Shown here in pieces: positions 1 through 51,277 of a DNA stretch of 51,277 nt. The notes beneath the pieces were generated by a model that ran no database searches, was not told where the DNA came from, and saw only the letters and a list, made by a program, of their open reading frames with translations. Position 1 is the first letter of the stretch; the number at the start of each line of letters is the position of its first letter. The DNA is from a virus (lineage: Duplodnaviria; Heunggongvirae; Uroviricota; Caudoviricetes): the IMG/VR virus record IMGVR_UViG_2851955134_000001. The stretch is one strand, 5' to 3'. Both the position numbers and the translations under genes were made by a program.

Positions 1-576
1 TCACCATCCAACCCTGTACGCCAGAATGGTTTCACTGTCACTCAGTTCTGCTATTGCCTTTTTCATCTCCCTTTGCCTTATATGTATTTCAAGGCCTTTC
101 CTGAACATCGCTTTACCAGCAGCATCACTCAGGGATATCAGTTCATCTGCCGTCATCGGTACATCATTATTCTCTGCGTCCGTCCAGAAAAATCCTTCCG
201 GCAACACACCGCCTCTGGCCGCTGATGCCGACATTCCAAGACGTGTCATGGTTTCCTTTCCATAATCCCATTTCCGTCCTCTGTGCTCAAAAACATACCC
301 TGACGCCTCCATCGCATCACGCCAGGCATTTATCTCCGCGTTTTTCATCCTGCGTGCTTCTTCCACAGCCATATCATCATTTGCCCGGTACTCACCTACC
401 GGCCCTGCATCACCTCTTATGCAGGCTTCAAATATTTCACGACCGTAAGACTCAGGATCATCCGCACTTGCTGTAAATACACATTCTGTTTCCGCGTCTG
501 AAAACTTCACTATACAGTTTATGGTCGTATGACCCCTGTCAGCCCACACTGGTGACGTGATTTTATCGACCTTCAT
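1..576 (-). CDS. tail fibre assembly protein (Tfa-like); start at 576, 3' end runs off the window
   Basis: ORF open to position 1; ATG at 576 preceded by GGGGAG RBS; lies 15 bp downstream of stf as in lambda stf-tfa; Tfa-like from recalled lambda Tfa. Confidence 0.6.
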   Translation of the reverse strand: MKVDKITSPVWADRGHTTINCIVKFSDAETECVFTASADDPESYGREIFEACIRGDAGPVGEYRANDDMAVEEARRMKNAEINAWRDAMEASGYVFEHRGRKWDYGKETMTRLGMSASAARGGVLPEGFFWTDAENNDVPMTADELISLSDAAGKAMFRKGLEIHIRQREMKKAIAELSDSETILAYRVGW

Positions 577-591
577 TCATTTCTCCCCCTG

Positions 592-2325
592 TCACAGTAT
601 TCTCTGAAACAGGCCCCAAATCGTCCCACTGATATTATTCACCGCCATGTTAGTTGTGCATAACATCCATGTACCAAGCATAGGATTGCCAAATAAAAAG
701 CGGATATCTGTAAGTTTATCCGATGACGACGACACAATAACGGCCTGTCTGATACGATACCCGGGTATTTGACGGGTATTTGTTATCTCATGATTTCGTT
801 CTATGATCCCCAGAACATAAGACCCCACGGAATAAACACTTCCGACGCTCGCTGGCCGCCCCGCTTCTCCTCTTGGCCCCTGTGGACCTGCCGGACCGCG
901 TTCACCTGTATACCCTCTTGGCCCCTGTAGACCTGCCGGGCCGCGTGCTCCTGTATCCCCCTTTAGTCCCTGTGGACCTGCCGGGCCGCGTTCACCTGTT
1001 TCACCTTTTGGTCCCTGTGGACCTGCCGGGCCACGTTCACCTGTATCGCCCTTTGGTCCCTGTGGACCTGTCGGGCCACGTGCTCCTGTTTCACCTTTTG
1101 GTCCCTGTGGACCTGCCGGGCCGCGTGCTCCTGTATCCCCCTTTAGTCCCTGTGGACCTGCCGGGCCGCGTGCTCCTGTATCCCCCTTTAGTCCCTGTGG
1201 ACCTGCCGGACCGCGTTCACCTGTATCCCCCTTTAGTCCCTGTGGACCTGCCGGGCCACGTTCACCTGTATCGCCCTTTGGTCCCTGTGGACCTGCCGGG
1301 CCACGTTCACCTGTATCGCCCTTTGGTCCCTGTGGACCTGTCGGGCCACGTTCACCTGTTTCACCTTTTGGTCCCTGTGGACCTGCCGGGCCGCGTTCAC
1401 CTGTTTCACCTTTTGGTCCCTGTGGACCTCCCGGATCTCCTTTATCCCCCTTAGGGCCTTTTTCTCCTCGCTCACCCTTTTCTCCCTTCAGACCCTGAGG
1501 GCCTTCCGGACCACGTGCACCTGTTTCGCCCTTTGCTCCCTGTGGACCTGCCGGGCCGCGTTCACCTGTTTCACCTTTTGCTCCCTGTGGACCTTCCGGA
1601 CCACGTGCACCTGTTTCGCCTTTTGGTCCCTGTGGACCTGCCGGGCCGCGTTCACCTGTATCGCCCTTTGGTCCCTGTGGACCTGCCGGACCGCGTTCAC
1701 CTGTTTCACCTTTTGGTCCCTGTGGACCTGCCGGGCCGCGTTCACCTGTATCGCCCTTTGGTCCCTGTGGACCTGCCGGACCGCGTTCACCTGTTTCACC
1801 TTTTGGTCCCTGTGGACCTGCCGGGCCACGTGCTCCTGTTTCACCTTTTGGCCCCTGTGGCCCGGTAATGCCTCTTTCACCACGAGCGCCGGTATCCCCT
1901 TTCTCTCCTCGTGGTCCCCGGGCAGATGCTGCTCGCTTCCGGGCTTCCTCCGCCTCAGATGCCGCGGACTCTGCTCTGTGCAGTATGGACTGCACCACAG
2001 CCTCCAGCTCTGACAACGCCTTCGGATAATAAGCAGCATCTTCCATCTCCATCAGAAATTTATTCAGTGTTCCCGGTGAAGAATCCTCCCTGACCACGAT
2101 ATCTCCCACATACGAAGGACGGTAACCTTCTGTATTGAGTGTCACCCTGTATATTCCTGGCTCCACATCCATACTGTAACTCCCCGTCTCTTCCGGCATG
2201 CCATAAGCCACTGTCGTGGCGATGACTGTCTCGCTGGTTCTCTTCGCTTTCAGCTCAATAATGCATCCCGGTACCGGTTTTCCGGTTCCGTCCCTGAGCA
2301 CGCCTGAAATTTTTACAGCCGCCAT
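592..2325 (-). CDS. side tail fibre protein (Stf-like) with long collagen-like Gly-X-Y repeat region
   Basis: N-terminus [18 protein letters not shown] resembles recalled lambda Stf N-terminus; about 340 aa of GPxGPxGxxGxRG repeats; ATG at 2325. Confidence 0.8.
865..1870. repeat. tandem ~45-bp coding repeats (collagen-like GxY units) inside stf
   Basis: Visible periodic reiteration of cctgtggacctgccgggccgcgttcacctgt... units; all six frames stay open across the array. Confidence 0.85.
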
Positions 2326-2458
2326 ACTCGCTCCACAAATAAAAATAATCCCGCAAAATTGCGGGCGTCGTCATTCATTTACAATCGGGTGTTTTTATGA
2401 TTACTGTAACCGGCTCATTTAAACCGTCTGGTCTGTTTCCTCCGGCTCTACAAAAATA

Positions 2459-3136
2459 ATGTCCATCATTTTTAATGGACACTATCGTATGAAACACCGG
2501 ACCTGGATCACTGAAGCTTTACGTCTTCACTTTGAAGAACATTTACCCCGGGTTGTGGCCGGGCGTCGCCTGGGTGTACCAAAATCAACAGTTTGCAGTA
2601 TGTTCGTGCGCTTTCGGAGAGCTGGCCTTTCGTGGCCTTTGCCCGCAGGCATGTCGGAGCAGGAACTTGATGCCTGCCTTTACGGACAATTTTCCACGGT
2701 ACCAGTCGTACGTCCTGAAAGCACCGTTATATCCGAAGCCCCCGTGGTAAAAAAACGTCCCCGGCGGCCCAACTTCCCTTATGAGTTTAAAATCGCCTTA
2801 GTGGAACAGTCACTGCAGCCCGGAGCCTGTGTGGCGCAGATCGCCCGGGAAAACGGAATCAACGATAACCTGCTCTTCAACTGGCGCCATCAATACCGGA
2901 AAGGTGGCCTGCTGCCTTCCGGAAAAAATATGCCGGCACTGCTTCCCGTGACGTTAACGCCGGAGCCGGATAATAAAATCCCGGCTCCGGCACAGGAACC
3001 AGAGCAGATAAATACACCGTCCGACAGTCTGTGTTGTGAGCTGGTTCTGCCGGCCGGAACTCTCAGGCTTAAAGGTAAACTGACGCCGGCGTTATTACAG
3101 ACACTTATCCGCGAAATAAAAGGGAGCAGCCACTGA
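2459..3136 (+). CDS. IS66-family accessory protein TnpA (start may be the internal ATG at 2489)
   Basis: First ORF of the IS; stop overlaps the tnpB start (ATGA at 3136). Confidence 0.65.
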   Translation: MSIIFNGHYRMKHRTWITEALRLHFEEHLPRVVAGRRLGVPKSTVCSMFVRFRRAGLSWPLPAGMSEQELDACLYGQFSTVPVVRPESTVISEAPVVKKRPRRPNFPYEFKIALVEQSLQPGACVAQIARENGINDNLLFNWRHQYRKGGLLPSGKNMPALLPVTLTPEPDNKIPAPAQEPEQINTPSDSLCCELVLPAGTLRLKGKLTPALLQTLIREIKGSSH

Positions 3137-3483
3137 TGATATCTCTCCCTGCAGGTTCGCGTATCTGGCTGGTTGCCGGTATCACCGATATGCGAAATGG
3201 CTTTAACGGCCTGGCCTCAAAAGTTCAGAACGTCCTGAAGGATGACCCGTTCTCCGGACACCTGTTCATCTTCCGCGGACGCCGGGGTGACCAGATAAAA
3301 GTGTTGTGGGCTGACAGTGACGGACTGTGCCTCTTCACCAAACGCCTGGAGCGGGGCCGCTTCGTCTGGCCGGTTACCCGTGACGGCAAGGTGCACCTTA
3401 CTCCGGCTCAGTTATCTATGCTTCTTGAAGGTATCAACTGGAAGCACCCGAAACGAACGGAACGCGCTGGCATTCGCATATAA
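3136..3483 (+). CDS. IS66-family TnpB (Orf2)
   Basis: 115 aa with sequence MISLPAGSRIWLVAGITDMRNGFNGL... characteristic of IS66 Orf2, as recalled. Confidence 0.85.
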   Translation: MISLPAGSRIWLVAGITDMRNGFNGLASKVQNVLKDDPFSGHLFIFRGRRGDQIKVLWADSDGLCLFTKRLERGRFVWPVTRDGKVHLTPAQLSMLLEGINWKHPKRTERAGIRI

Positions 3484-3502
3484 CCCGTTGTAAAGTGAGG
3501 AT

Positions 3503-5074
3503 ATGGACACCTCACTTGCTCATGAGAATGCCCGCCTGCGGGCACTGTTGCAGACGCAACAGGACACCATCCGCCAGATGGCGAAATACAACCGCCTGCT
3601 CTCACAGCGGGTGGCGGCTTATGCTTCCGAAATCAACCGGCTGAAGGCGCTGGTTGCGAAACTGCAACGTATGCAGTTCGGTAAAAGCTCAGAAAAACTT
3701 CGTGCAAAAACCGAACGGCAGATACAGGAAGCACAGGAGCGAATCAGCGCACTTCAGGAAGAAATGGCGGAAACGCTGGGTGAGCAATATGACCCGGTAC
3801 TGCCATCCGCCCTGCGCCAGTCTTCAGCCCGTAAACCGTTACCGGCCTCACTTCCCCGTGAAACCCGGGTTATCCGGCCGGAAGAGGAATGCTGTCCTGC
3901 CTGTGGTGGTGAACTCAGTTCTCTGGGATGTGATGTGTCAGAGCAACTGGAGCTTATCAGCAGCGCCTTTAAGGTTATCGAAACACAACGTCCGAAACTG
4001 GCCTGTTGCCGGTGCGACCATATCGTGCAGGCACCGGTGCCTTCAAAACCCATTGCACGCAGTTATGCCGGAGCGGGGCTCCTGGCCCATGTCGTCACCG
4101 GAAAATATGCAGACCATCTGCCGTTATACCGCCAGTCAGAGATATACCGCCGTCAGGGTGTGGAGCTGAGCCGTGCCACACTGGGGCGCTGGACTGGTGC
4201 CGTTGCTGAACTACTGGAGCCGCTGTATGACGTCCTGCGCCAGTATGTGCTGATGCCCGGTAAAGTCCATGCTGATGATATCCCCGTCCCGGTCCAGGAG
4301 CCGGGCAGCGGTAAAACCCGGACAGCCCGGCTGTGGGTCTACGTCCGTGATGACCGTAACGCCGGTTCACAGATGCCCCCGGCGGTCTGGTTCGCGTACA
4401 GTCCGGACCGGAAAGGTATCCATCCACAAAATCACCTGGCCGGTTACAGCGGTGTGCTTCAGGCCGATGCTTACGGTGGTTACCGGGCGTTATACGAATC
4501 CGGCAGAATAACGGAAGCCGCGTGTATGGCTCATGCCCGGAGAAAAATCCACGATGTGCATGCAAGAGCGCCCACCGACATCACCACGGAAGCCCTGCAG
4601 CGTATCGGTGAACTGTATGCCATCGAGGCAGAGGTCCGGGGCTGTTCAGCAGAACAGCGTCTGGCGGCAAGAAAAACCAGAGCCGCGCCACTGATGCAGT
4701 CACTGTATGACTGGATACAGCAACAGATGAAAACACTGTCGCGTCACTCAGATACGGCAAAAGCGTTCGCATACCTGCTGAAACAGTGGGATGCACTGAA
4801 CGTGTACTGCAGTAATGGCTGGGTGGAAATCGACAACAACATCGCAGAGAACGCCTTACGGGGAGTGGCCGTAGGCCGGAAAAACTGGCTCTTCGCGGGT
4901 TCCGACAGCGGTGGCGAACATGCGGCGGTGTTGTACTCGCTGATCGGCACATGCCGTCTGAACAATGTGGAGCCAGAAAAATGGCTGCGTTACGTTATTG
5001 AGCATATTCAGGACTGGCCGGCAAACCGGGTACGCGATCTGTTGCCCTGGAAAGTTGATCTGAGCTCTCAGTAA
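3503..5074 (+). CDS. IS66-family transposase (TnpC)
   Basis: 523 aa; N-terminal leucine-zipper-like region, CxxC zinc motif and C-terminal region typical of IS66 transposases. Confidence 0.9.
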
Positions 5075-5107
5075 ATATCAATACGGTTCTGACGAGCCGC
5101 TTACTGA

Positions 5108-5353
5108 TTACTTCACGCACGAAACTTTCGTAAACATATCTTCACTCACCCACTGACCATAAAATCTCGGAGCTGATACTTTATACACAGTGCCGCTTTT
5201 CGTTTCTATTTTCCCTGTAAGATCTACCGTATAAGCTCGCTGTAAAACCCCGGGACTCAGCACACCGGTGCACCGGACTCTCTCCGTAACGGAACTGTAC
5301 CCCGCGCAACCTGATACAAGAAACAGCAAAAAAGTGCAGACGATTATTTTCAT
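5108..5353 (-). CDS. small lipoprotein downstream of tail genes; possibly Cor-like superinfection exclusion protein
   Basis: Signal peptide with lipobox LVSGC; 81 aa; the position after the J/tail region matches where cor sits in phi80/HK022-type phages. Confidence 0.45.
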   Translation of the reverse strand: MKIIVCTFLLFLVSGCAGYSSVTERVRCTGVLSPGVLQRAYTVDLTGKIETKSGTVYKVSAPRFYGQWVSEDMFTKVSCVK

Positions 5354-5374
5354 TACATGCCCTCAACATAACTA

Positions 5375-6037
5375 TCAGTACGCATCATAAATTTCTGCAT
5401 TTATGTAATAACAGAGGTTATTAACAACACCTGAATTATCATTGGGCGCCGCTACGTTATCTTCAGCAAAAGTTGACTGACGCCATAACTGTGAGTTTCT
5501 GGCATTAAAACTGGCGGTATACCAGTAATAACTCTCCCCTTCCTGAACTGTCGTCCACTGGGTACACCCCGGCATTACGGCCACATCATGTCCCACACTG
5601 ATCGGTACATCCTTTTCCCATATTCGCGTCATTTTTACTTCCAGTGGCAGCATTTCCGTGTTCCAGACCACCCTGCCATGACTGTCGCACAACTGTATTC
5701 CCCATTGCGGCCATACATTCACCATGTTGGCAAAAACATAAACAACATATGTGCTGTCCTGTTCCATGCCCGGCTCCTGCCCTGTACCAGCGCTGAAAAT
5801 GTCATACTGCCAGGTACCGTTAAGCTGAACCATTTCACCATGGAAGGACTGATTACCGCTTATCTGTTTAATAAAAATCACGCAACGATAATTCGTCGGC
5901 ACCCCGGTGTCGATAAACTGCATCACCGCATCACGCGCACTCAGTGTGAAATGAAAACGGCGCACAAGGTTCAGTGGCGGCGCAACAGGTGATATCCATT
6001 CTCTCCCCCGCTCATCAGTTAATTTAAGTGCAAACAT
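5375..6037 (-). CDS. hypothetical phage protein in the tail tip region
   Basis: ATG at 6037 with AAGGGGGA RBS; 220 aa; no recognisable motif. Confidence 0.5.
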   Translation of the reverse strand: MFALKLTDERGREWISPVAPPLNLVRRFHFTLSARDAVMQFIDTGVPTNYRCVIFIKQISGNQSFHGEMVQLNGTWQYDIFSAGTGQEPGMEQDSTYVVYVFANMVNVWPQWGIQLCDSHGRVVWNTEMLPLEVKMTRIWEKDVPISVGHDVAVMPGCTQWTTVQEGESYYWYTASFNARNSQLWRQSTFAEDNVAAPNDNSGVVNNLCYYINAEIYDAY

Positions 6038-6297
6038 CAGATCCCCCTTATCATGACCAGCACGGGTCTTAGCCAGCTTGTGTTGGCATAGTGCACTGTC
6101 CAGCCGGATACACTGGCACTGGTATGACTTCCCTGACCGTTAATCAGAATGGCCGGTGAACAGACTTCCAGACGCCAGCCCTGCAAAGGAGTATAAGAAC
6201 GCTGCCCCGTCCCTTCAGTGATCACATCCAGCACCCCTGTTGGGTTTATTTCATGTGTCACAAGGCGCCCTTTGCGCCATACCCGGACTCCGAACAT
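6037..6297 (-). CDS. hypothetical small protein translationally coupled to J
   Basis: ATG overlaps the J stop (TAATG); GGGGAG RBS inside the J 3' end. Confidence 0.4.
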   Translation of the reverse strand: MFGVRVWRKGRLVTHEINPTGVLDVITEGTGQRSYTPLQGWRLEVCSPAILINGQGSHTSASVSGWTVHYANTSWLRPVLVMIRGI

Positions 6298-9200
6298 TAC
6301 AGTCTCCCCAGTCGTACTCTTAACACATTGTTATCGTCATATACGTCGATTCGCTCGCCATTGAAAAACAGGCGGCCTGCGCCGGGCCTTCCTGAGTTAA
6401 TTTCAAGGCTGCCGTTTCTTGATAAACGCCACCCCGGACTACCGGAATGAAAATTATCTGACCGGATATCTCCCGTCACTCTGGCAAAATCCACGGTCAG
6501 TTTTTTCATGAAAACATCATTCATGAACAGCTGATCACCCTGAGCCACAAACAAAGGTGTTGTATTGCCATTTTCCGGGTTAATCATCGCAATACGATCT
6601 GCCTGCATCAGGATCTGACTCTGAATTCCGTCAGACGTATTTTCGATTCCGGCACCAATACCTGCAATATAGAGACGTCCATCCCGTGTCTGCTGCAGCT
6701 TCACAGCCCACATGCTGTTCAGGTTCCGGCGCGTGTCCTCCTGAACTTTCTGTATCTGCTCAATGCTGGCATTCCAGGATCCCAGTTTTTTATCCGTGCT
6801 CTGTGTGATCTGACTTCCCTTATCATCAACATACTGTCTGATCTGCGCTATCTGTCGGCTGTTCTCCTCCGTGCTCCTGCTTACTGTCTGCCGGATTTCG
6901 CTGCCCATCCTGTCAACTTTTCTGTCAACTTCCGCAATGGCCATTGACTGTTCAGCGCTCTTTTTCGCCACAACAGTACTTATTTGCGCACTTTTATCAT
7001 CAACATACTGCCTGACCTGCGCTATCTGTCGGCTGTTCTCCTCCGTGCTCCTGCTTACTGTCTGCCGGATTTCACTGCTCACGCTGTCAACTTTCCTGTC
7101 GACTTTCGCAATGGCCAGCGACTGTTCACCGCTCTTTTTCGCCACAACAGTACTTATTTGCGCACTTTTATCATCAACATACTGCCTGACCTGCGCTATC
7201 TGTCGGCTGTTCTCCTCCGTGCTCCTGCTTACTGTCTGCCGGATTTCACTGCTCACGCTGTCAACTTTCCTGTCGACTTTCGCAATGGCCAGCGACTGTT
7301 CACCGCTCTTTTTCGCCACCAGTTCCGTTATGCTGTTTTCAGACGCCGTGATTTTTTTCGTCACCTCTGCGATATCACGCTCCGCACGCTGCCTCACATC
7401 TTTCTCCAACTGCGTCATTTCGCGGTTAATCGCATTCTCCAGCTGCGTCATTTCGCGGTTAATCGCATTCTCCAGTTGCTCAACTTCAGTGCGCCGTGCA
7501 GAGGCATCAATGCGTTCATTGATCTCCCGTCCCAGATGCGTTTTATTTATCGCCCCCCTGAAAAAATTAAGGTAACCGGCAGGATCATTACTCGCCCGAC
7601 CGACTGCCTCCACGAATGCCGATTTACCGACAGTGTTAACACTGCGGATATAAAAGTAATAATCATGGCCAGGCTTAATATTCTGGCCGGAGACAAGCCA
7701 CTGAGTTCCGGTACCAAGATAACGGGCTGTGGTTTCAACCTGCCTGATATCGGTAATCCGCTTTTCCGAAAACCAGAACTCAAACTGCACCGTCGGATCA
7801 TAAACGGCAAGATGCGGCGTGGCGGTTATCTGAAAATAGCCCGGCGTCAGCTCAATCCGCGACGGCGCTGCCGGTGCGGCAATCCGGAACGATACCGACG
7901 CCGGGTCTCCCTGCTGCCCCCGGGCATTTACTGCCCGGACTGTCAGCCTGTAGTTCCCCGGCGCCAGCTGCCTGAAGCGGTATGTGGTTTCCGTCGTCCG
8001 GGCCGTGCTGACCAGCCGCTCACTGCCGTCATCCGCTGCCACGGTCAGGCGAAGCATGAAACTCACGCCTTTCACCACCTTCGGCGTGTCCCAGCGGGCC
8101 AGTACCTGATACTCCCCGCTGTCTGCGGTGACTTCGACAGTCAGGTGCTGCACTGCTGGCGGCGTGACACCATTCACCGTGCCGCTCTGGTCACCGTCAA
8201 AGTGTGCCCCGTTATCCACGATGCCCTCTTTTTCCGGTACATGCTGCACGGCAGTGATGGCATACGTGCCGTCGTCGTTCTCACGGATACTCACGCAGCG
8301 GAACAGGCGCTGGCGCAGCGTCGGCAGCTTCAGCCCCCACACGCTGTACTCGGCAACGCCGTCAGGAACCCGGCTCACTTTTACCTTCACGCCGTCGGTG
8401 ACGGACTGAACCTCCACGCTGACCGGATTGCCACTTCCGTCAACCAGGCTTATCAGCGTGGTACCGGAGGATGGCAGCGTGATTTCACGGTCGAGCGTCA
8501 GCGTCCGGGTCTGGCTGTTCACCGCCAGCACACGACCACCGGTGCTGATACCGGCATAGTCATCATCACAGATTTCAATGACATCGCCCGGTACATGGCG
8601 AAGCCCTTCAGCACCCACGCTGAAATCCACGGTCTGCGTCTCCAGCAGTTCTGTTTTAATCAGCCACAGCCCGGCGCGGTGTGCCTGCCCCCGGCTGGTA
8701 CAGCCAAAGGCATCCATCTTCGTGACGTTACGACCGTAACGGGCAATGGCCTGCGTATCTTCAACAAGCTCTGTCGCCGTCTCCTGGCCGTTATCCGGGT
8801 CACTCCAGTTCACCTCAACGGCATTATGGCGGTCCTTCAGGGCGCTGAAGCTGTAGCGGAACGGCGCGCCATCATCCGGCATCACCACATTACTGCGGTT
8901 ATAGGTCCACACCTTATCCGACGGTCGGTCCTGCACGAACGTCAGCGTCTGCCCGTTCCATACCGGCATACAGCGCATCGCCGAGCAGAAATCACTGAGC
9001 ACATCCCACGCCTTACGCTGTGTGGTCAGCCAGGCATTACAGGTGATGCGCGGCTCCGTGCCGCCAAAGCCGTCCGGCACTGACTGGTCGCAGTACTGGC
9101 CGATGACATACAGCGCCCATTTATCCACATCCGCTGCGCCAACACGTTTCCCCATGCCGTAGCGCGGATGGGTCAGCATATCCCACAGACACCAGGCCGG

Positions 9201-36592: not shown

Positions 36593-36748
36593 TTACTCCT
36601 CAGGTTCGTAAGCTGTGAAGACAGCGACCTCCGTCTGGCCGGTTCGGATTCGTACCTCGCAGAGGTCTTTCCTCGTTACCAGTGCCGTCACTATGACGGT
36701 TAAACAGATGACGATCAGGGCGATTAACATCGCCTTTTGCTGCTTCAT
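36593..36748 (-). CDS. hok: Hok/Gef-family type I toxin
   Basis: 51-aa MKQQKAMLIALIVICLTVIVTALVTRKDLCEVRIRTGQTEVAVFTAYEPEE recognised as Hok family. Confidence 0.85.
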   Translation of the reverse strand: MKQQKAMLIALIVICLTVIVTALVTRKDLCEVRIRTGQTEVAVFTAYEPEE

Positions 36749-36984
36749 AGCCTGCTTCTCCTTGCCTTTCGGCGCGTAAGAGGCTAACCTACGTTTGTGA
36801 AGCATAGATTGGGCCTCAGATTAATGTTAAGCGTCTTGCAGGACGCGTAATGTTAACTGGGGCTTTTATCTATCTGCCGTTGGTGTTCATGCCCGAGGCA
36901 GATAGCCTCAAGCACCCGCAGCAATTCTACTTAACTCACGTCACCTCGCCAATATAAAATCAATCAGAAAGGTGCCCCATAAAA

Positions 36985-40604: not shown

Positions 40605-41030
40605 TCAGTGCATCACCGCAGCATTACCCGCCGGGCCACCACGATTCATCTGATTGAAACCGGCGATTGCCACTGCGATAAAATCATCCGCGTCTCTCAC
40701 CAGCCGTTCTCGTGTCTCCAGCAGCTCCCTGAAATAGGCTGAGCTGTGGCTACGCATTCTGGCCACCAGCAAAGGCGGCATTGCCTTTTCGATCGCTGGT
40801 AGTAACGCCTGAATTTTTTCAACCGCATCAGGGGTGTCTTTCTCCACCCAGCGGAAAATTTTCTGGGTATTACGGGCCAGGGCTTCCGGATGGCTGTCGT
40901 CGTACAGCTCAGGAAACGTCATGCCCAGCTCGAAATAAACCCTGGTTATCTCGGCTGCCGGAACTTTTTCACCATCCGGACGCGACCAGGCATTCATCGC
41001 CATGCGGATGTGTTCATGCTTGATTTTCAT
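40605..41030 (-). CDS. YdaT-like protein (cII-position regulator of Rac-type phages)
   Basis: Starts MKIKHEHI... like recalled Rac YdaT; follows the cro-like gene. Confidence 0.6.
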   Translation of the reverse strand: MKIKHEHIRMAMNAWSRPDGEKVPAAEITRVYFELGMTFPELYDDSHPEALARNTQKIFRWVEKDTPDAVEKIQALLPAIEKAMPPLLVARMRSHSSAYFRELLETRERLVRDADDFIAVAIAGFNQMNRGGPAGNAAVMH

Positions 41031-41295
41031 GAATCAAGCTCCTAGTAAGTGGTTGTGTTAACGTTTTGGTATCTTCCAGCTCGGGCCAAATATTCATCCA
41101 ATCAAAAGGCCTTAGTTGCTGACGTGTAACTTCACCATTACTGGCTCGCTCAATAAGGACACATAACGATGCCCCTAACATTTGACCTTTACTCAATGCC
41201 TTTCTTAGATAACCGATGCTAGTACCACACTCACATGCAAACATACGCTGTTCATCTGACGAAAGAGAATTGAGAAATATTCTTAATTCTTCCAT
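41014..41295 (-). CDS. Cro-like HTH regulator (YdaS family)
   Basis: Divergent from the repressor gene; AAGGAG RBS; HTH-like region. Confidence 0.6.
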   Translation of the reverse strand: MEELRIFLNSLSSDEQRMFACECGTSIGYLRKALSKGQMLGASLCVLIERASNGEVTRQQLRPFDWMNIWPELEDTKTLTQPLTRSLIHENQA

Positions 41296-41325: not shown

Positions 41326-41361
41326 TACCCACAGGTAAACAAAAGTCAATACCCTTGGGTT
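41326..41361. promoter_or_regulatory. oR-like operator pair between divergent cro-like and repressor genes
   Basis: Half-palindromes tacccacaggta (41326-41337) and tacccttgggtt (41350-41361), related to the perfect TACCCATGGGTA sites downstream of the repressor gene. Confidence 0.5.
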
Positions 41362-41396
41362 GTTTACCTTGCGGTAATCGCATCTATTATTTACCT

Positions 41397-41816
41397 ATGG
41401 ACAAATATGAATTTAGACGACAACAACTCATCAAAATTCGTGATGAGAAATGCGATGGTAAAGCGGTTAACGTGGCCAGAAAGATCGGTCGCGAGCCTTC
41501 TTATGTATCAAGAATGTTGTACCCAGAGGGGAAAAAAGGAAAAAAACGGATCGCTGATGATATGGTGGAGATTATAGAAGAGTCCTTTGGGTTACCCCGG
41601 GGATGGATGGATGGTATCGTTTCATCATCAACGAACACAGCCTCCAATTATGAAACAAGGGTTCTAACGCCACGACAACGTATTTTTTTAGATCTCTTAG
41701 ACGAACTGCCTGAAAGTGAAGCGGATAACTTATTAAAAACTCTTGAAGAGAAAAAACAGTATTACAATATGATCTACGAAGAAATCCGTAAAAAGAAAGC
41801 ACAAAACGCATCATAA
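41397..41816 (+). CDS. CI-type prophage repressor (short RacR-like form without peptidase domain)
   Basis: ATG at 41397; HTH around AVNVARKIGREPSYVSRML; divergent from the cro-like gene and flanked by operator palindromes. Confidence 0.6.
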   Translation: MDKYEFRRQQLIKIRDEKCDGKAVNVARKIGREPSYVSRMLYPEGKKGKKRIADDMVEIIEESFGLPRGWMDGIVSSSTNTASNYETRVLTPRQRIFLDLLDELPESEADNLLKTLEEKKQYYNMIYEEIRKKKAQNAS

Positions 41817-41906: not shown

Positions 41907-42082
41907 CATACCAACCCACCCCGCCCCACAGAACGCAGGGCAATACTTCGAGTTACCAGGCAGTGGTCAGGGGTTAAGTAGCCAGCCCGAGGCGTATGAA
42001 CATGACGGCAGGGTTCAACTTTAATAACTATGCAGCAGGTTTTTGTTCCGCTACCCCGGCGTTAAGGGGAAATGAGGTCAGC

Positions 42083-42238
42083 ATGGATACTATCGATCTT
42101 GGCAACAACGAATCTCTGGTGTACGGCGTGTTTCCAAACCAGGACGGCACCTTCACCGCAATGACGTATACCAAAAGCAAAACGTTTAAAACCGAAAATG
42201 GTGCCCGTCGCTGGCTGGAAAGAAACTCAGGTGAGTGA
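42083..42238 (+). CDS. small early protein (YdaF-like)
   Basis: ATG at 42083 with GAGGT RBS; 51 aa; first gene after the oL region. Confidence 0.5.
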   Translation: MDTIDLGNNESLVYGVFPNQDGTFTAMTYTKSKTFKTENGARRWLERNSGE

Positions 42239-42239
42239 T

Positions 42240-42368
42240 ATGGATTTTGACACAATCATGGAAAAGGCTTACGAAGAATACTTCGAAGGCCTTGCCGAAG
42301 GCGAAGAAGCTCACAGCTTCAACGAATTTAAACAGGCGCTTTCCAGTTCGGCAAAATCTAACGGCTGA
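42240..42368 (+). CDS. small acidic protein (YdaG-like), 42 aa
   Basis: ATG one nt after the previous stop; below the ORF-track size cut-off; translated by hand. Confidence 0.4.
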   Translation: MDFDTIMEKAYEEYFEGLAEGEEAHSFNEFKQALSSSAKSNG

Positions 42369-42397
42369 TAAGCGAAACAGCACCGCGAGGAATCAGT

Positions 42398-42616
42398 ATG
42401 CAGAAACGAGAACCCGTCATCATCGCGCCAGACTATACCGATGATGAACTTTATGAGTGGATGCGCCAGAAAATTAATGCAGCGCAGGATCTGAAATGGG
42501 CCAATGAAGCCAGGGCTAAGCAGGCTGAAAATCTGTCCGCTCTGGAGCAGGATATCACCAATCTGGAAAAAGCAGCGGCATTAAGCATTGCCAGAATGAT
42601 TACATACCCGCGTTAA
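42398..42616 (+). CDS. small early protein (RacC-like)
   Basis: ATG at 42398 with GAGGA RBS; 72 aa. Confidence 0.5.
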   Translation: MQKREPVIIAPDYTDDELYEWMRQKINAAQDLKWANEARAKQAENLSALEQDITNLEKAAALSIARMITYPR

Positions 42617-43500
42617 TAGCTAACCAACGAAGCTAAGGTTGGTAATTAAGGAGTTCTCCACGGGTGAGGTGGAGTACGTGCGCCGGACACGGGTGAGCAT
42701 CCGGCACTGACAGTTTACTGAAAGGATATTTCCCTGAAAAGTCAGACCATAACGCGAAAGCGCACGGCGAGGTAGCTGGTTCATAGATAGCCTGTCGTTA
42801 AATTTTCGTCGACCGTGCGCTTCCGGTTGTGGCAACCCGCGAAATGGTGCGGCGGTAAGTATGGCGGGGTTATTTCTTCCCCGTTGAGGACACCGGGTTG
42901 TCAGGTTGACCATGCGCCTGAGTGACAACCCCGCTGCAACGCCATCTGTTATCAATTTTCTGGTGACGTTTGGCGGTATCAGTTTTACTCCGTGACTGCT
43001 CTGCCGCCCTTTTTAAAGTGAATTTTGTGATGTGGTGAATGCGGCTGATCGCACGTGGAACAGTTAAAACCAAAAACAGTGTTATGGGTGGATTCTCTGT
43101 ATCCGGCGTTAATTGTTAACTGGTTAACGTCACCTGGAGGCACCCTGGAGGCACCAGGCACCGCATCAACAAAGTTCACTTCGGTGATGAAAGGTAAGAG
43201 AAAATGTTGAATGTAGCTATTGAAAACCAGTACGGGTGGAATTATAGTGCACCTGCACCTCATAAACCGGGTGCCGGGCGTGGAAACCCGAAGTCAAACG
43301 TAGCGCACAACCGCGCTCAGGCGGTTTTTTTATGCGTGAAGCACAGCCACATTCAGATTATGGTGGGGCGTGCAGGGCAGCCGCAAGGCTGGCCGGGTTC
43401 TACGTTGACCGGTATTTCCACCCCTGTACGTCTCACCACCATTATGGTCGTGGAAAGCCTCGGTGGTGAGTTATCAATACTCAACGTGGAGGCTGCCATT
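42617..43500 (+). other. ~880-bp ORF-free, hairpin-rich segment inside the early-left operon (candidate structured RNA / regulatory leader)
   Basis: No plus-strand ORF of 60 aa or more; multiple stable stems, e.g. gggttgtca...tgacaaccc, gcgcacgg...ccgtgcgc, cgggg-ttatttctt-ccccg. Confidence 0.4.
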
Positions 43501-44055
43501 ATGGCTACTACCCTTACCCTTTCTCACCCTGACGTAACCATTGAAAATGGTCGCGCTGTCACTACGTCTGTTGCGATCGCGGAATTCTTTGGCAAGCGTC
43601 ACGACAATGTTATCCAAAAAATAAAATTACTGGACTGCTCCGCTGAGTTCACTGCCCTTAATTTTAAGGCGAGCGAATACACCGACTCAACAGGACGCAA
43701 ACTCCCTATGTACCAAATCACCAAAAACGGCTTCGTTTTCCTTGTGATGGGCTTCACGGGCAAAAAGGCCGCTGCATTCAAGGAAGCCTACATTGCCGAG
43801 TTCGACCGCATGGAGGAAGAACTGCGCCGGAATAACACCACACCCGCTGACAAAATAATCCCGGGTGATGGCCGCACCCTGGTTATCCGCTTCGACGAAC
43901 ACGGCTACATCAAATTCACCGAAACCGTTCCTGATGGCGCACTGGTCTGTACTCTGGATACTTTCCGTTTTTATCTGGAAAAGCAGGGATGGACTCTCAT
44001 AAACCGGGGCGCAATTAAAAATATGACCGTCGAGCAGTTGCTGAGTATTAAATAG
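43501..44055 (+). CDS. Rha-family phage regulatory protein
   Basis: ATG at 43501 with GTGGAGG RBS; motif ENGRAVTTSVAIAEFFGKRHDNVIQKI typical of Rha N-terminal domain. Confidence 0.65.
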   Translation: MATTLTLSHPDVTIENGRAVTTSVAIAEFFGKRHDNVIQKIKLLDCSAEFTALNFKASEYTDSTGRKLPMYQITKNGFVFLVMGFTGKKAAAFKEAYIAEFDRMEEELRRNNTTPADKIIPGDGRTLVIRFDEHGYIKFTETVPDGALVCTLDTFRFYLEKQGWTLINRGAIKNMTVEQLLSIK

Positions 44056-44441: not shown

Positions 44442-46895
44442 ATGAGCACTGATAAAGAAACTTTTGCGCTATATTGCGAAGCTAAAAATGACAAAGTCAG
44501 AAAACGCCTTGGGATTAAAGGTGGTTTTTACTGGACTACAGCAAAAAAATTATCTGTTGCCATCTCCCGCTGCATTACCGCAATGGATGATAACGATTAT
44601 GATGAAGACGACTTTAAAAAACCTGTTCGCGTCCATTTGCCCGTTGTTGATGACCTTCCACCGGAAGGCGTGTTTGATACCGAATTCTGTAACCGGTATG
44701 AAAAAGGCGGCGAAGATGGCATCACAATGATATTTATCGCGCCTCCGCCATCCGCGCAGGACAAACCAGCCAGCACTGACAACACCAATGTTAATGGCGA
44801 AGACATGACTGAGATTGAGGAGAATATGCTTCTGCCGGTTTCAGGTCAGATTCTGCCTGTTCGCTGGCTGGCGCAACACGGCGGCGAAAAACCAGTAACG
44901 CACGTTTCGCGGGATGAACTGCGCTCATTACATAACGCACAGGAAGAAAAACTTCCCGCCGTTACCGCGCTGGCCATCTCAAATAAAGCAGCGCAACTCG
45001 AACCGCTGGAGATTCGGGATTTGTACAAACTGGTGCGGGACACTGACAAAGTTTTTCCCGCCCCCGTAAATTCAGACCTGGGACTGATGACCTCCTTCAT
45101 CGAAGCATACCTGGACGCTGACTACACTGATCGTGGTCTGCTTACAAAAGAGTGGATGAAAGGAAATCGTGTTTCTCGCATCAGTCGCACACCATCCGGC
45201 GCTAACGCTGGCGGCGGTATCCTTACCGATCGCGGCGAAGGTTTTGTGCATGATAATGCGTCAATGGCATTCGATGTTGCTACAGGAAAACTGGCTCGTT
45301 CGATGGATGTGGATATTTACAACATGCATCCTTCACATACCAGACGTGTTAACGAAATTATCGCAGAAAATGATCCCTGTTTCTCCGTCTTCCTTAAGGC
45401 TTTTCTGAACATGCCAGGCGGGATGGATTATTCCCGCGCCATCGTGGTTGCCTCCGTGAAAGAAGCACCGGTTGGTATAGAGGCTATGCCCCAGCGCGTC
45501 ACCGAATACCTGAATAAAGTGCTGACCGAAACCGATCATGCCAACCCTGATCCGGAAATCGTGGATATTGCCTGCGGTCGTTCCTCTGCCCCAATGCCGC
45601 AGCGTGTAACAGAAGAAGGAAAACAGGATGATGAAGAAAAACCGCAACCGTCTGGCGCAATGGCAGATGAACAGCCAACGACTGAAACAGTGGAACCGGA
45701 TACAACTGAACATCATCCGGACACGCAGCCGCTGGATGCTCAGCCGCAGGTGAATTCTGTTGATGCGAAATATCAGAAACTGCGGGCAGAACTCCATGAA
45801 GCTAGGAAAAACATTCCGCCCAAAAATCCTGTCGATGCAGACAAATTACTGGCGGCCTCGCGTGGTGAGTTCGTTGAAGGGATTAGCGACCCGAATGATC
45901 TGAAATGGGTTAAGGGAGTCCAGACTCGCGATTCAGTGAACCAGAACCAGCAAGAAACGGAACAGAACGACCAGAAAGCGGAACAAAACAGCCAAAATGC
46001 GTTACAAAACGAGCCAGAAACGAAACAACCTGAGCCAGTAGCGCAACAGGAACCGGAAAAAGTCTGCACCGCCTGCGGTCAGACCAGCGGCGGCAACTGC
46101 CCTGATTGTGGCTCAGTAATGGGTGACGCAACATACCAGGAAACATTCAATGGAGAAAATCAGGCTGAATCTCAGGAAAAAAATCCGGAGGAAACGGAAG
46201 GCACTGAGCATCCGCACAAGGAGAACACTGGCGGCGCTCAGGGCCACGCCAGCGATAATAAAACTGGCGAAACAGAAAATTCCTTAATTAAGATGAACGG
46301 TCATCGTGAAATCACATCCACCAGCAGAGTATGGAATCACCTGTCAGTCGACCTTGAAACAATGGGAGCCAACACCAATGCACCCATAGTAGTTATTGGT
46401 GCGGTTTTCTTCGACCCGGAAACAGGGGAAATCGGGCCGGTATTTTATATCGTTATCAGCCTGACTGACGCAATGAATACAGGGGCTGTTCCTGATGGTG
46501 GCACCATCGAATGGTGGCTGAAGCAGTCCAGCGAAGCCAGAGCTGCCATTTTAACTGACCAGGTAAAAATGAAAGATGCCCTTTTGCGTTTTCGGCAATT
46601 CGTCAATGAACACTCTGATGAAAAATTCGTTCAGGTGTGGGGTAATGGCGCAACGTTCGATAACGCAATTTTGCGCACCTCATACGAACGTCTGGACATC
46701 CCCTGTCCGTGGCATTACAGCAACGATCGTGATGTACGCACAATCGTTGAGATGGGGAAAATCACAGACTTCAATGCCAGAAGCGTAATTCCATTCGAAG
46801 GCGTGCGCCATAATGCTCTGGATGACGCTCTTCACCAGGCAAAATACGTAACAGCCACTATACAAAAACTGATCCCGAATCAGGCTGATTTTTAA
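44442..46895 (+). CDS. large exonuclease: RecE-like N-terminal region, zinc ribbon, C-terminal DEDDh 3'-5' exonuclease domain
   Basis: C-terminal motifs DLET (Exo I), [12 protein letters not shown] (Exo II), HNALDDALH (Exo III); [16 protein letters not shown] zinc ribbon; N-terminal part resembles recalled RecE-type exodeoxyribonuclease VIII. Confidence 0.7.
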
Positions 46896-46953
46896 TGTTC
46901 AACCCTAATCGCCGCTAACCGCATATAGTTAGCGGCGGTTATGAGATATAGCT

Positions 46954-47157
46954 ATGAGCAGCTTATTTTTAACCGAAGATGAATTGCTAATATTAACGGG
47001 CTGCAAATATGCAAGCCACCAGCGAAAATGGTTAATGGAAAACGGGCTTCCGTTCTATACCAATCGTAGTGGCAAACCGATTGTCAGCCGGGATCTATTT
47101 ACCTGCAATAAAACTTTACCACCACGCGAGGTAGAGCCGAATTTTGGTGCGATCTGA
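46954..47157 (+). CDS. excisionase-like protein
   Basis: 67 aa; stop overlaps the int start (TGATG); immediately upstream of int. Confidence 0.55.
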   Translation: MSSLFLTEDELLILTGCKYASHQRKWLMENGLPFYTNRSGKPIVSRDLFTCNKTLPPREVEPNFGAI

Positions 47158-48182
47158 TGGGAAGACGAAGGAAAAATCCTGAACACGAAAAATTACCTCC
47201 AAATGTATACCCAAATAAATATAGTTATGTATGGAAACCAACATCCAGAGAATCTGTAACACTAACCGCCATCAAGGATGGTTTAGCTGCTTTATGGAAA
47301 AAGTATGAGGAAACTGTAAATAATCGCGATCGTGCAATGACATTCGGTCGCTTGTGGGAAAAATTCCTCGCCAGCGCCTGTTACAGTGACCTTAGTCCAA
47401 GAACACAAAAAGATTATCTGCAACATCAAAAAAAGTTGCTTGCCGTATTCGGTAAGGTACCAGCGGATTCCATAAAACCAGAACACATCCGTCGATACAT
47501 GGACAAAAGAGGGGAACAGAGTAAAACGCAAGCCAACCATGAAAAAAGCAGTATGTCCCGTGTTTACAGTTGGGGGTATGAGCGAGGGTACGTGAAGGCT
47601 AACCCATGTGCAGGTGTAAGTAAATTCAAGGCCAAAAACCGCGAACGATATGTAACCGACAAAGAATACCAGGCAGTATTAAGCGTGGCACCCCTTCCTG
47701 TTTTTATCGCAATGGAAATTGCCTATCTGTGTGCAGCGAGGGTTTCCGATGTGTTATCGCTGAAATGGGAGCAGATTGGAAACGACGGGATCTTTATCCA
47801 GCAAGGGAAAACAGGGAAAAAACAGATAAAAGCATGGAGTCCACGATTACAGGCAGCGGTCGAAAAAGCAAAACAGTTACCAAAATCCGCCTATGTGATC
47901 AGCAATCAATACGGCAACCGATATATGTACAAAGGCTTTAACGAAATGTGGGTAGAAGCAAGAAATCGCGCAGGCAAAGTTTCAGGTATTTTAACCGACT
48001 TCACCTTTCATGATCTGAAGGCGAAAGGAATTTCAGACTATGAAGGAAGCAGCCGGGATAAGCAACTTTTCTCTGGTCACAAAACCGAAGGGCAAGTGCT
48101 AATCTATGACCGGAAGGTTAAAGTTTCACCAACACTTGATGTCCCGTTACCTGAAAATATTCCAAGAAAATATTCCAAGTAA
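47157..48182 (+). CDS. tyrosine integrase (lambda Int-like)
   Basis: N-terminus MGRRRKNPEHEKLPPNVY like lambda Int MGRRRSHERRDLPPNLY; C-terminal ...FHDLKAKG... and LIYDRK Tyr region; adjacent to a tRNA. Confidence 0.85.
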   Translation: MGRRRKNPEHEKLPPNVYPNKYSYVWKPTSRESVTLTAIKDGLAALWKKYEETVNNRDRAMTFGRLWEKFLASACYSDLSPRTQKDYLQHQKKLLAVFGKVPADSIKPEHIRRYMDKRGEQSKTQANHEKSSMSRVYSWGYERGYVKANPCAGVSKFKAKNRERYVTDKEYQAVLSVAPLPVFIAMEIAYLCAARVSDVLSLKWEQIGNDGIFIQQGKTGKKQIKAWSPRLQAAVEKAKQLPKSAYVISNQYGNRYMYKGFNEMWVEARNRAGKVSGILTDFTFHDLKAKGISDYEGSSRDKQLFSGHKTEGQVLIYDRKVKVSPTLDVPLPENIPRKYSK

Positions 48183-48234
48183 TTCCAAGTGTGATTTTTG
48201 TCACTGACTTAATGATGTATAAGTGATTGAATTT

Positions 48235-48324
48235 TGGCGGAGAGAGGGGGATTTGAACCCCCGGTGGAGTTGCCCCCACTCCGGTTTTCGAGACCGGTCC
48301 GTTCAGCCGCTCCGGCATCTCTCC
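48235..48324 (-). tRNA. serU: tRNA-Ser (anticodon CGA)
   Basis: Reverse complement reads GGAGAGATGCCGGAGCGGCTGAACGGACCGGTCTCGAAAACCGG...GGTTCAAATCCCCCTCTCTCCGCCA with long variable arm and CGA anticodon; K-12 serU neighbours mtfA. Confidence 0.9.
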
Positions 48325-48417: not shown

Positions 48418-49215
48418 ATGATTAAGTGGCCCTGGAAAGTACAAGAATCAGCACATCAAACTGCCCTTCCCTGGCAGGAAGCACTATCGATCCCCCTTTT
48501 AACGTGTCTGACGGAACAGGAACAAAGCAAATTAGTCACTCTTGCCGAACGTTTTTTACAGCAAAAACGGCTTGTTCCTTTACAGGGCTTTGAGCTGAAT
48601 TCATTAAGAAGCTGCCGGATAGCACTTCTATTTTGCCTGCCCGTTCTGGAGTTAGGACTGGAATGGCTGGATGGTTTTCATGAAGTCTTAATTTATCCTG
48701 CGCCATTTGTGGTCGATGATGAATGGGAAGACGATATCGGTCTGGTGCATAACCAACGTATTGTTCAGTCAGGTCAGAGCTGGCAGCAAGGGCCTATCGT
48801 TTTGAACTGGTTGGATATACAAGATTCTTTTGATGCTTCTGGTTTTAACCTGATTATTCATGAAGTCGCTCATAAGCTGGACACCCGTAACGGCGATCGC
48901 GCCAGCGGAGTTCCCTTTATTCCGTTGCGTGAGGTTGCTGGCTGGGAACACGATCTTCATGCTGCAATGAACAACATTCAGGAAGAAATCGAATTGGTTG
49001 GCGAGAATGCGGCGAGCATCGATGCTTATGCTGCCAGTGATCCTGCTGAATGTTTTGCCGTACTTTCTGAATATTTCTTTAGCGCCCCAGAACTTTTTGC
49101 TCCTCGTTTCCCTTCATTGTGGCAACGTTTCTGCCAATTTTATCAACAAGATCCTTTGCAGAGACTGCATCACGCTAATGATACAGACTCGTTTTCGGCG
49201 ACGAATGTTCATTAA
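48418..49215 (+). CDS. mtfA: Mlc titration factor A
   Basis: [23 protein letters not shown]... recognised as E. coli MtfA (YeeI); HEVAH zinc-peptidase motif. Confidence 0.9.
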
Positions 49216-49315: not shown

Positions 49316-49391
49316 TCCTCTGTAGTTCAGTCGGTAGAACGGCGGACTGTTAATCCGTATGTCACTGGTTCGAGTCCAGTCAGAGGAGCCA
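49316..49391 (+). tRNA. asnT: tRNA-Asn (anticodon GTT)
   Basis: TCCTCTGTAGTTCAGTCGGTAGAACGGCGGACTGTTAATCCGT...GGTTCGAGTCCAGTCAGAGGAGCCA, 76 nt. Confidence 0.9.
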
Positions 49392-49537: not shown

Positions 49538-50524
49538 TGGAGTGACCCCCATATATCCCTTACCGACGCAAAAATCCGCACCCTCAAGCCTTCTGATAAA
49601 CCCTTTAAAGTCTCCGATTCTCACAGTCTGTATCTGCGGGTCAAGCCGGGTGGCTCCCGCCACTGGTATCTCAAATACCGTATTAGCGGTAAAGAATCCC
49701 GCATTGCGCTGGGTGCCTATCCAGCCATCTCCCTGTCTGATGCGCGACAGCAACGTGAAGGTATCCGTAAAATGCTGGCGCTGAATATCAACCCGGTACA
49801 GCAGCGGGCTGCTGTACGTGGCTCACGAACACCGGAGAAAGTTTTTAAAAACGTGGCGCTGGCGTGGCATAAAAGTAACAGGAAATGGTCGCAGAACACC
49901 GCCGACCGTCTGCTTGCCAGCCTGAACAATCACATCTTTCCGGTCATCGGGAACCTACCTGTATCAGAACTTAAACCCCGTCATTTCATTGACCTGCAGA
50001 AAGGGATCGAGGAAAAAGGTCTGCTGGAGGTTGCGTCCCGCACACGGCAGCACCTGAGTAACATAATACGCCATGCGGTCCATCAGGAGTTAATCGATAC
50101 GAACCCTGCAGCAAACCTTGGCGGCGTGACCACACCTCCTGTCAGACGGCACTATCCTGCCCTGCCGCTGGAGCGGCTGCCTGAACTGCTTGAACGTATT
50201 GGGGCATATCATCAGGGCCGTGAACTGACCCGGCATGCCGTTCTGCTGATGCTGCATGTGTTCATTCGCTCCAGTGAACTGCGTTTCGCCCGCTGGTCAG
50301 AGATTGATTTCACAAACCGAGTCTGGACGATACCCGCGACGCGAGAACCCATTATTGGCGTGCATTATTCCGGCCGCGGGGCAAAAATGCGAATGCCGCA
50401 TATCGTCCCCCTCTCAGAACAGTCCATCGCCATTCTGAAACAGATTAAGGATATCACCGGTAATAATGAACTGATCTTCCCCGGCGACCATAACCCGTAT
50501 AAGCCAATGTGTGAAAACACGGTC
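49538..50524 (+). pseudogene. P4-type integrase remnant beside tRNA-Asn: no canonical start codon and 3' end truncated by IS1
   Basis: Frame encodes ...SLTDAKIRTLKPSDKPFKVSDSHSLYLRVKPGGSRHWYLKYRISGK... (P4-integrase-like N-terminus); ATA where the ATG is expected (49553); ORF runs into the IS1 left end at 50525. Confidence 0.65.
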
Positions 50525-50579
50525 GGTGATGCTGCCAACTTACTGATTTAGTGTATGATGGTGTTTTTGAGGTGCTCCA

Positions 50580-50855
50580 GTGGCTTCCATTTCCATCAGA
50601 TGTCCTTCCTGCTCCGCTACTGAAGGCGTGGTGCGTAACGGCAAAAGCACTGCCGGACATCAGCGCTATCTCTGCTCTCACTGCCGTAAAACATGGCAAC
50701 TGCAGTTCACTTACACCGCTTCTCAACCCGGTACGCACCAGAAAATCATTGATATGGCCATGAATGGCGTTGGATGCCGGGCAACAGCCCGCATTATGGG
50801 CATTGGCCTCAACACGATTTTACGTCACTTAAAAAACTCAGGCCGCAGTCGGTAA
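50580..50855 (+). CDS. insA: IS1 InsA
   Basis: 91 aa [23 protein letters not shown]... Confidence 0.9.
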
Positions 50856-51277
50856 CCTCGCGCATACAGCCGGGCAGTGACGTCATCGTCTGCGCGGAAA
50901 TGGACGAACAGTGGGGCTATGTCGGGGCTAAATCGCGCCAGCGCTGGCTGTTTTACGCGTATGACAGGCTCCGGAAGACGGTTGTTGCGCACGTATTCGG
51001 TGAACGCACTATGGCGACGCTGGGGCGTCTTATGAGCCTGCTGTCACCCTTTGACGTGGTGATATGGATGACGGATGGCTGGCCGCTGTATGAATCCCGC
51101 CTGAAGGGAAAGCTGCACGTAATCAGCAAGCGATATACGCAGCGAATTGAGCGGCATAACCTGAATCTGAGGCAGCACCTGGCACGGCTGGGACGGAAGT
51201 CGCTGTCGTTCTCAAAATCGGTGGAGCTGCATGACAAAGTCATCGGGCATTATCTGAACATAAAACACTATCAATAA
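50774..51277 (+). CDS. insB: IS1 InsB (expressed as InsAB' via -1 frameshift at the A6C motif)
   Basis: 167-aa ORF overlapping insA; ttaaaaaac slippery run near 50827. Confidence 0.9.

Follow-up and report, generated by a model that had tools for sequence, protein, structure and literature searches.

The 51,277-nucleotide stretch catalogued as IMG/VR virus record IMGVR_UViG_2851955134_000001 (Caudoviricetes; called the window here, always at its full length) runs from a tail gene of a prophage into bacterial chromosome, and near its right end an integrase gene (int) lies directly beside a tRNA gene. This arrangement raises the question of how the prophage came to be joined to its host, at which bases the exchange took place, and whether the recombination module at the junction is still a working one. 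The region is very probably the int-proximal junction of a lambdoid prophage that was integrated by site-specific recombination into serU, the gene for tRNA-Ser(CGA).

The serU junction and the position of strand exchange

A first-pass annotation made from the letters alone had placed an int with a coupled excisionase gene (xis) against the 3′ end of a tRNA-Ser on the opposite strand, followed by the host gene mtfA and a tRNA-Asn, and ARAGORN, Rfam and Pfam return the same genes at the same coordinates (Table 1). The TGA stop codon of xis overlaps the ATG of int (TGATG, 47155-47159), and 52 nt separate the int stop codon (48182) from the 3′ end of the tRNA gene (48235), int and serU being convergent. 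On the minus strand of the window are the late genes; the plus strand carries the early-left operon together with xis and int. The host flank matches the gene order of Escherichia coli K-12 (yodB-serU-mtfA-asnT), in which the site is empty; the annotation had proposed K-12 as an unoccupied reference, and it is one.

Occupation of serU by this module is common. In a collection of 5426 complete E. coli genomes, a 2.5-kb segment spanning xis, int, serU, mtfA and asnT is present at a coverage of at least 80% in 1092 (about one in five), and across these the part comprising xis, int and the adjoining attachment site (attR) is identical or 99.5-100% identical; over the whole segment, strains TUM1886 and TUM9803 match the window at 100% identity. 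The literature lists serU as a prophage site in E. coli SE11 (PP_SE11-6) (PMC2608844) and in O145:H28 (PMC7067040), and as a site of Shiga toxin (Stx) phages (PMC8065619).

Site-specific integration predicts a second copy of the tRNA segment at the far end of the prophage. As had been anticipated, there is none inside the 51-kb window, which is consistent with the left edge lying within a tail-fibre-assembly gene; the left prophage end is outside. The distal end was examined in four other lysogens, namely TUM1886, TUM9803, IHE3034 and GCA_027278105.1, the last of which encodes a tail-fibre-assembly protein identical to that of the window and has its distal junction ~1.1 kb past the corresponding gene. 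In all four, the yodB-side host flank is followed by a 62-bp copy of the 3′ part of serU carrying the K-12-type A and T (see below) and then by the phage sequence ATGATACAGAGTCGAAAAATC, and the identity of this copy with the tRNA ends at one and the same base (TTTTCGAGACCG), inside the 5′ strand of the anticodon stem. A junction-spanning query finds the whole distal junction in 832 of the 5426 genomes, while genomes with an empty site align with it only to base 182, the end of the 62-bp block. The view of a mosaic lambdoid prophage in serU next to mtfA is thus upheld by the empty K-12 site, by the 1092 occupied genomes and by the direct repeats in four other lysogens.

Some further observations concern the distal side. 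When window positions 1-6300 were compared by megablast with the 5426 complete genomes, only one record was returned (82% coverage, 96% identity). The tail-fibre-assembly protein itself is widespread, with 605 blocks at several different chromosomal loci. The host flank of IHE3034 lacks yodB, and the serU prophage of this strain, which has the same xis-int, carries the cdtABC genes of a type I cytolethal distending toxin beside the distal junction (L010 9364-11464). Phage vB_EcoM-606R7, whose Int is 99% identical, was considered as a free-phage source of attP, the attachment site of the phage, and rejected: its record turned out to be an excerpt of a prophage, with mtfA and genes of the high-pathogenicity island (HPI) in it.

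The block of identity begins at the tRNA 3′ end, runs through the anticodon loop and extends into the 5′ strand of the anticodon stem. Two bases of the window serU depart from the K-12 gene: on the plus strand, A is replaced by G at 48266 and T by C at 48277. The two are partners in the variable-arm stem, which makes the change a compensatory one from A-U to G-C, and the predicted cloverleaf fold is the same as for K-12 serU. In every lysogen examined, the phage-type G and C are found in the int-proximal tRNA and the host-type A and T, as in K-12, in the distal copy. Given this segregation, the crossover must fall rightward of 48277, and it cannot fall past 48296, where identity ends. The 19 bp between these limits (ACTCCGGTTTTCGAGACCG) correspond to the anticodon stem-loop and include the anticodon (48288-48290). 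The first-pass annotation had expected an att core overlapping the tRNA 3′ end; the repeat does start there, but the site of exchange lies in the anticodon stem-loop.

Taken together, the sequences show that 62 bp of the phage attP duplicate the 3′ part of tRNA-Ser(CGA), starting at the 3′ end of the gene and reaching the 5′ anticodon stem, and that integration moved the host copy of this segment to the far end of the prophage; the strand exchange must have taken place within the last 19 bp of the block. The far end of the prophage in the window would then carry the serU fragment TGGCGGAGAGAGGGGGATTTGAACCCCCGGTAGAGTTGCCCCTACTCCGGTTTTCGAGACCG followed by the phage arm ATGATACAGAGTCG. Judged by its sequence, serU in the window is a hybrid but intact gene with 62 nt of phage origin on its 3′ side and 28 nt of host origin on its 5′ side, the phage-borne copy completing the tRNA gene and so leaving serU intact. 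Every lysogen of this phage type would be expected to express a serU tRNA whose variable-arm A-U pair has been changed to G-C by the phage.

Table 1. Features of the prophage, the serU junction and the host flank (window coordinates)
Feature	Position	Strand	Basis
Prophage body	1-48234		tblastn against lambda, Rac, Qin and DLP12; Pfam; PHROGs; annotated relatives TUM1886, TUM9803 and IHE3034
Divergent helix-turn-helix (HTH) genes (repressor/cro)	41014-41295; 41355-41816	-; +	PHROGs, Pfam
Putative excisionase, DUF4224, 67 amino acids	46954-47157	+	Pfam, PHROGs
Tyrosine integrase, 341 amino acids, ST64B/serU-targeting clade	47157-48182	+	Pfam PF00589, PF22022
Three tandem ATTCCAAG repeats, candidate P′-arm Int arm-type sites	48159-48166, 48172-48179, 48182-48189 (48159-48189)	+	Repeat search
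att identity block, 62 bp, phage-borne 3′ part of serU	48235-48296		Repeat at the distal junction of four lysogens
Strand-exchange interval, 19 bp	48278-48296		Segregation of two substitutions and end of identity
tRNA-Ser(CGA), serU	48235-48324	-	ARAGORN, Rfam
Host mtfA	48418-49215	+	Pfam Peptidase_M90
tRNA-Asn(GTT), asnT	49316-49391	+	ARAGORN, Rfam

Integrase, putative excisionase and candidate arm-type sites

The integrase matches the Phage_integrase profile PF00589 (45.7 bits) as well as the Phage_int_M and SAM-like domain profiles, the latter two covering residues 62-154. Its alignment with lambda Int (1z1b; residues 1-338) starts at residue 1 (MGRRR..LPPN) and extends to residue 313. The alignment and the Pfam domains both point to a heterobivalent architecture, with an N-terminal arm-binding domain and a core-binding domain. 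Five of the six catalytic residues are canonical, R195, K218, H285, H308 and Y317 aligning with R212, K235, H308, H333 and Y342 of lambda Int; at the position of lambda R311 there is a lysine, K288 (codon ~48018-48020), which gives the motif HDLK rather than HxxR.

The DUF4224 protein encoded upstream of int is probably an excisionase (recombination directionality factor), and is here called putative. It matches Pfam DUF4224 (E 1.9e-15) and the PHROG family phrog_1266, "excisionase" (E 3e-21), and is 36% identical to Sb29 of the Salmonella phage ST64B, which is annotated as an excisionase. As would be expected of such a factor, the 67-amino-acid open reading frame (ORF) lies directly upstream of int and overlaps it. 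An AlphaFold2 model built on 44 homologues (mean predicted local distance difference test score, pLDDT, 75) consists of a strand, two helices and a beta-hairpin; structure comparison gave no more than weak hits to BldC, RacA, MerR and Tn916 Xis, and a sequence comparison with Protein Data Bank (PDB) chains gave only noise. A literature search found no experimental paper linking DUF4224 to excision. By analogy with lambda, one transcript of the early-left operon would carry both this gene and int. A promoter and terminator scan around xis-int gave hits no more frequent than in shuffled sequence. Between the exonuclease stop codon and the xis start codon there is a 14-bp inverted repeat with an 8-nt loop (TAATCGCCGCTAAC / GTTAGCGGCGGTTA, 46906-46941) and no T-run; a signal for attenuation or transcript processing of xis-int is one conceivable role.

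Sequences that could serve as arm-type sites are found next to the core. The motif ATTCCAAG occurs four times in the 51-kb window, and three of these copies fall within a 31-bp stretch that overlaps the last codons of int. When attP was reconstructed by joining the int side of the window to the P arm of TUM1886, it contained five copies, three at int and two located 40 and 105 bp past the core, one of them inverted; the arm with the two outer copies also holds two matches to the integration host factor (IHF) consensus. This 3 + 2 layout mirrors that of the lambda arm sites (P′1-3 and P1-2). At the same position, relatives carry repeats of other sequence: three copies of TTTTCTCA in ST64B, three of TATACCAA in Citrobacter phage Chris1 and four of ATGGCGAA in mEp390. 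Such differing repeats at one place are what would be expected if arm-type sites co-vary with the N-terminal domain of Int. If lambda Int biology is a guide, the ST64B-clade integrase would bind core sites made by the anticodon stem together with all five ATTCCAAG arm-type sites, both the trio at int and the pair in the opposite arm, and IHF would probably bend the P arm at its two consensus sites.

Competing explanations for the junction

Several points weigh against reading the region as the int-proximal junction of a prophage integrated at serU. The distal junction that belongs to this prophage is beyond the edge of the window and was not recoverable, and the arm-type and IHF sites are candidate sites, recognised by their sequence. 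In addition, the second catalytic Arg of the integrase is replaced by Lys, the NCBI Prokaryotic Genome Annotation Pipeline (PGAP) calls a 100%-identical int (corresponding to window 47157-48207) "frameshifted" in three genomes (TUM1886, TUM9803 and IHE3034), and the insertion sequences (IS) IS5 and IS66 may leave this copy defective as a phage. The last three points would fit a fossil junction, in which the integrase has been inactivated by a frameshift or by the Lys substitution, the prophage is locked in place and the module no longer works. The frameshift label, however, is probably an annotation artefact: the 341-residue frame has the length typical of orthologues with identities down to 61-84%, including an Escherichia albertii protein that NCBI annotates as intact, and the alternative frame alters only residues past the Tyr317 nucleophile, the supposed shift falling within the ATTCCAAG repeats, in a region where ST64B Int in any case ends 12 residues sooner. 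On these orthologue lengths and on the start of the alternative frame after Tyr317, the possibility that int is a true pseudogene was rejected. The Lys is likewise no peculiarity of this copy, for K288 is invariant in all 11 aligned family members, among them the Int of ST64B, a phage for which both excision (PMC12455584) and insertion in serU (PMC10100743) have been described, and the remaining catalytic residues are all present. K288 is accordingly best described as a trait of the family, and int is regarded as intact; a fossil junction is judged improbable.

If the members of the ST64B/serU clade are fully active with Lys at this position, as ST64B seems to be, the invariant residue might even represent a natural and widespread variant of an active site that has Arg here in all textbook tyrosine recombinases, although this seems doubtful at present; a literature search for Lys in place of the second catalytic Arg in these enzymes found nothing relevant. 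Such a variant, if real, would merit biochemical study.

Two other explanations concern the place of the crossover and the extent of the element. Many tRNA-targeting integrases act at the T-loop or 3′ end of their target gene, and the identity block does start at the 3′ end, so that a short core at the extreme 3′ end or in the T-loop, with the longer identity being incidental, could be envisaged, as the first-pass annotation had implied. A crossover to the left of both 48266 and 48277 would, however, reverse the strict segregation of these bases, and none of the lysogens examined had A/T in the tRNA next to int and G/C in the fragment at the far end; moreover, the identity stops in the anticodon stem alike in E. 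coli, ST64B and Chris1. A crossover at the 3′ end is therefore most improbable. It could also be argued that xis, int and att form a small integrative element of their own, standing in tandem with an unrelated prophage, given that the identical module is found beside virion genes of different kinds, the head being of the HK97 type in TUM1886 and IHE3034 but of the lambda type in TUM9803 and the window. Yet neither the window nor its relatives show a second att copy between int and the virion genes, the only other copy being past the tail-fibre end, and the early-left genes run uninterrupted into the module on one strand (kil, exonuclease, xis, int). A separate element is scarcely credible on these grounds, and the sharing of one module by prophages with different virions is ordinary modular exchange among lambdoid phages.

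Integration of a lambdoid prophage into serU, the interpretation preferred here, describes an ordinary junction at a known tRNA hot spot and nothing new in kind. The gene serU is already known to attract lambdoid and Stx prophages, and the significance lies mostly in annotation, where the refinements are a base-precise att (the 62-bp block and the 19-bp crossover interval), the candidate ATTCCAAG arm sites and the probable mis-annotation of a common integrase as frameshifted. These refinements should be of use for delimiting prophages at serU and for designing excision or empty-site PCR assays.

Mosaic composition and comparison with known systems

The prophage is lambdoid by its lambda-collinear late genes, an antiterminator of the Q family (PF03589), a P21-type holin/lysozyme/Rz cassette and the divergent HTH genes. 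The first-pass annotation had assigned it lambda-type virion genes, phage-21-type lysis genes and Rac-type early and immunity genes, and these assignments fared differently. By tblastn, the gene order from Nu1 to J follows that of lambda, with amino-acid identities of 46-98% (77-98% for the tail proteins, 46-65% for the head proteins and terminase), and the virion genes are indeed of the lambda type. The phage-21 label holds for the holin, which matches Pfam PF04971, "Bacteriophage P21 holin S" (E 5.5e-35), and is 76% identical to EssQ of Qin, but the cassette as a whole is closest to essQ-ydfR-rrrQ of Qin: a ydfR-like ORF lies between holin and lysozyme, as in Qin, and the lysozyme (PF00959), with an Ala/Gly-rich hydrophobic N-terminus as read from its sequence, is 94% identical to RrrQ. 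Rz, in turn, is 94% identical to that of lambda and DLP12, and bor is present.

In the early region, likeness to Rac is confined to some of the genes, namely kil (89%), the N-terminal part of RecE (70%) and a YdaU-like protein (72%; all by tblastn). The repressor has no similarity to RacR, RecT is absent from the window, and of RecE only residues 50-591 are conserved. The Cro-like protein and YdaS share 39% identity over 44 residues, and there is a YdaT family match of 39 bits. Positions 42045-43178 are 96.6% identical at the nucleotide level to ydfA-ydfB-ydfC-dicF of K-12 Qin, within flanking genes that are Rac-like (kil) or unrelated, and a likeness to Qin is also seen in YdfU (86%). The Rac-type assignment thus stands for kil, the RecE N-terminal part and the YdaU-like protein, but not for the repressor, RecT or the Qin-type ydfABC-dicF segment. 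The hallmarks of a Rac-type early and immunity region (RacR with YdaS/YdaT, RecE/RecT) are not found as such. Mosaic lambdoid prophage is the correct description; Rac-type immunity is not.

The RecE-like sequence belongs to an 817-residue "exonuclease" fusion (44442-46895, plus strand) that is homologous to RecE residues 50-591 (70% identity) and has an Rv2179c-like DEDDh 3′-5′ exonuclease domain (PF16473, E 3e-66) in place of the RecE nuclease domain. Rfam identifies four RNAs, DicF (42958-43009, plus strand), isrK (43255-43331, plus), the C4 antisense RNA (43356-43443, plus) and the sok antitoxin RNA (36743-36917, minus). Of these, isrK and C4 map to the beginning of an ORF with Ash and Rha domains (43204-44055), an arrangement that resembles the P1-type c4/antirepressor immunity module, here in a lambdoid early region.

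An IS66-family element (ISCro1-like; tnpA, tnpB and transposase) occupies ~2400-5105 (plus strand), just upstream of the side tail fibre gene, and a copy of IS5 (26464-27444, minus) separates the terminase genes from the cargo/lysis region. The side tail fibre protein (592-2325, minus; 577 residues) is composed mostly of collagen-like G-X-Y triplets. No record of exactly this protein exists in an index of 153 billion genes, probably because the number of repeats varies. Between IS5 and bor is low-GC (39%) cargo (27582-29186, minus) that encodes a 343-residue protein (phrog_2571, with no Pfam hit) and a predicted membrane protein of 164 residues. On the host side, asnT is adjoined by a P4/HPI-type integrase pseudogene (49550-50524), which either lacks an intact start or contains an internal stop and is cut at 50525 by an IS1 that reaches the end of the window (50525-51277). 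This arrangement beside asnT is 100% identical in enterotoxigenic E. coli (ETEC) strains of serotype O6:H16 and in TUM9803.

Although parts of the prophage resemble Rac and Qin, the integrases and att sites of these two elements (at ttcA and at ydfJ-rspB, respectively) differ from those of the window. With lambda, the junction shares a three-domain heterobivalent tyrosine recombinase, an xis that overlaps int from upstream, the position of int beside the P′ arm and IHF consensus sites. The likeness is one of architecture only, for the identity with lambda Int is just 23%, so that the first-pass label "lambda-like int" is apt for the layout but not for the sequence. Lambda has Arg at the second catalytic position and an Xis of its own family rather than DUF4224, and it recombines at a 15-bp core between gal and bio instead of a tRNA anticodon stem-loop with a 62-bp identity block; the two att sites have no sequence similarity.

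The closest characterised integrase, in a tblastn search of phage genomes, is Int (Sb28) of ST64B (59% identity over 96% of the length, E 1e-106), with which the window Int aligns end to end; it is followed by those of Klebsiella and Stenotrophomonas phages, of Chris1 (57%) and of mEp390 (47%). The last of these phages has the same layout with an apparent tRNA-Leu 3′ fragment. In the complete circular records of ST64B and Chris1, a 62-nt 3′ fragment of tRNA-Ser(CGA) lies beside int, with the same endpoint as in the window (...GAGACCG in ST64B). ST64B also has a small DUF4224-type gene directly upstream of int, three tandem short repeats between the end of int and the core, and serU as its target. 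It differs in its arm repeat (TTTTCTCA rather than ATTCCAAG), in a tRNA fragment that is of Salmonella sequence (85% identity) and in the rest of the phage, which is unrelated in its virion genes. Among the close relatives are also the serU lambdoid prophages of E. coli itself, including those of IHE3034, TUM1886, SE11 (PP_SE11-6) and Shiga toxin-producing E. coli (STEC) O145:H28 and O121:H19. These have xis-int-attR in common with the window and differ from it in cargo and virion modules, as is illustrated by IHE3034, with cdtABC and an HK97-type head, and the window, with a lambda-type head, IS5 and IS66.

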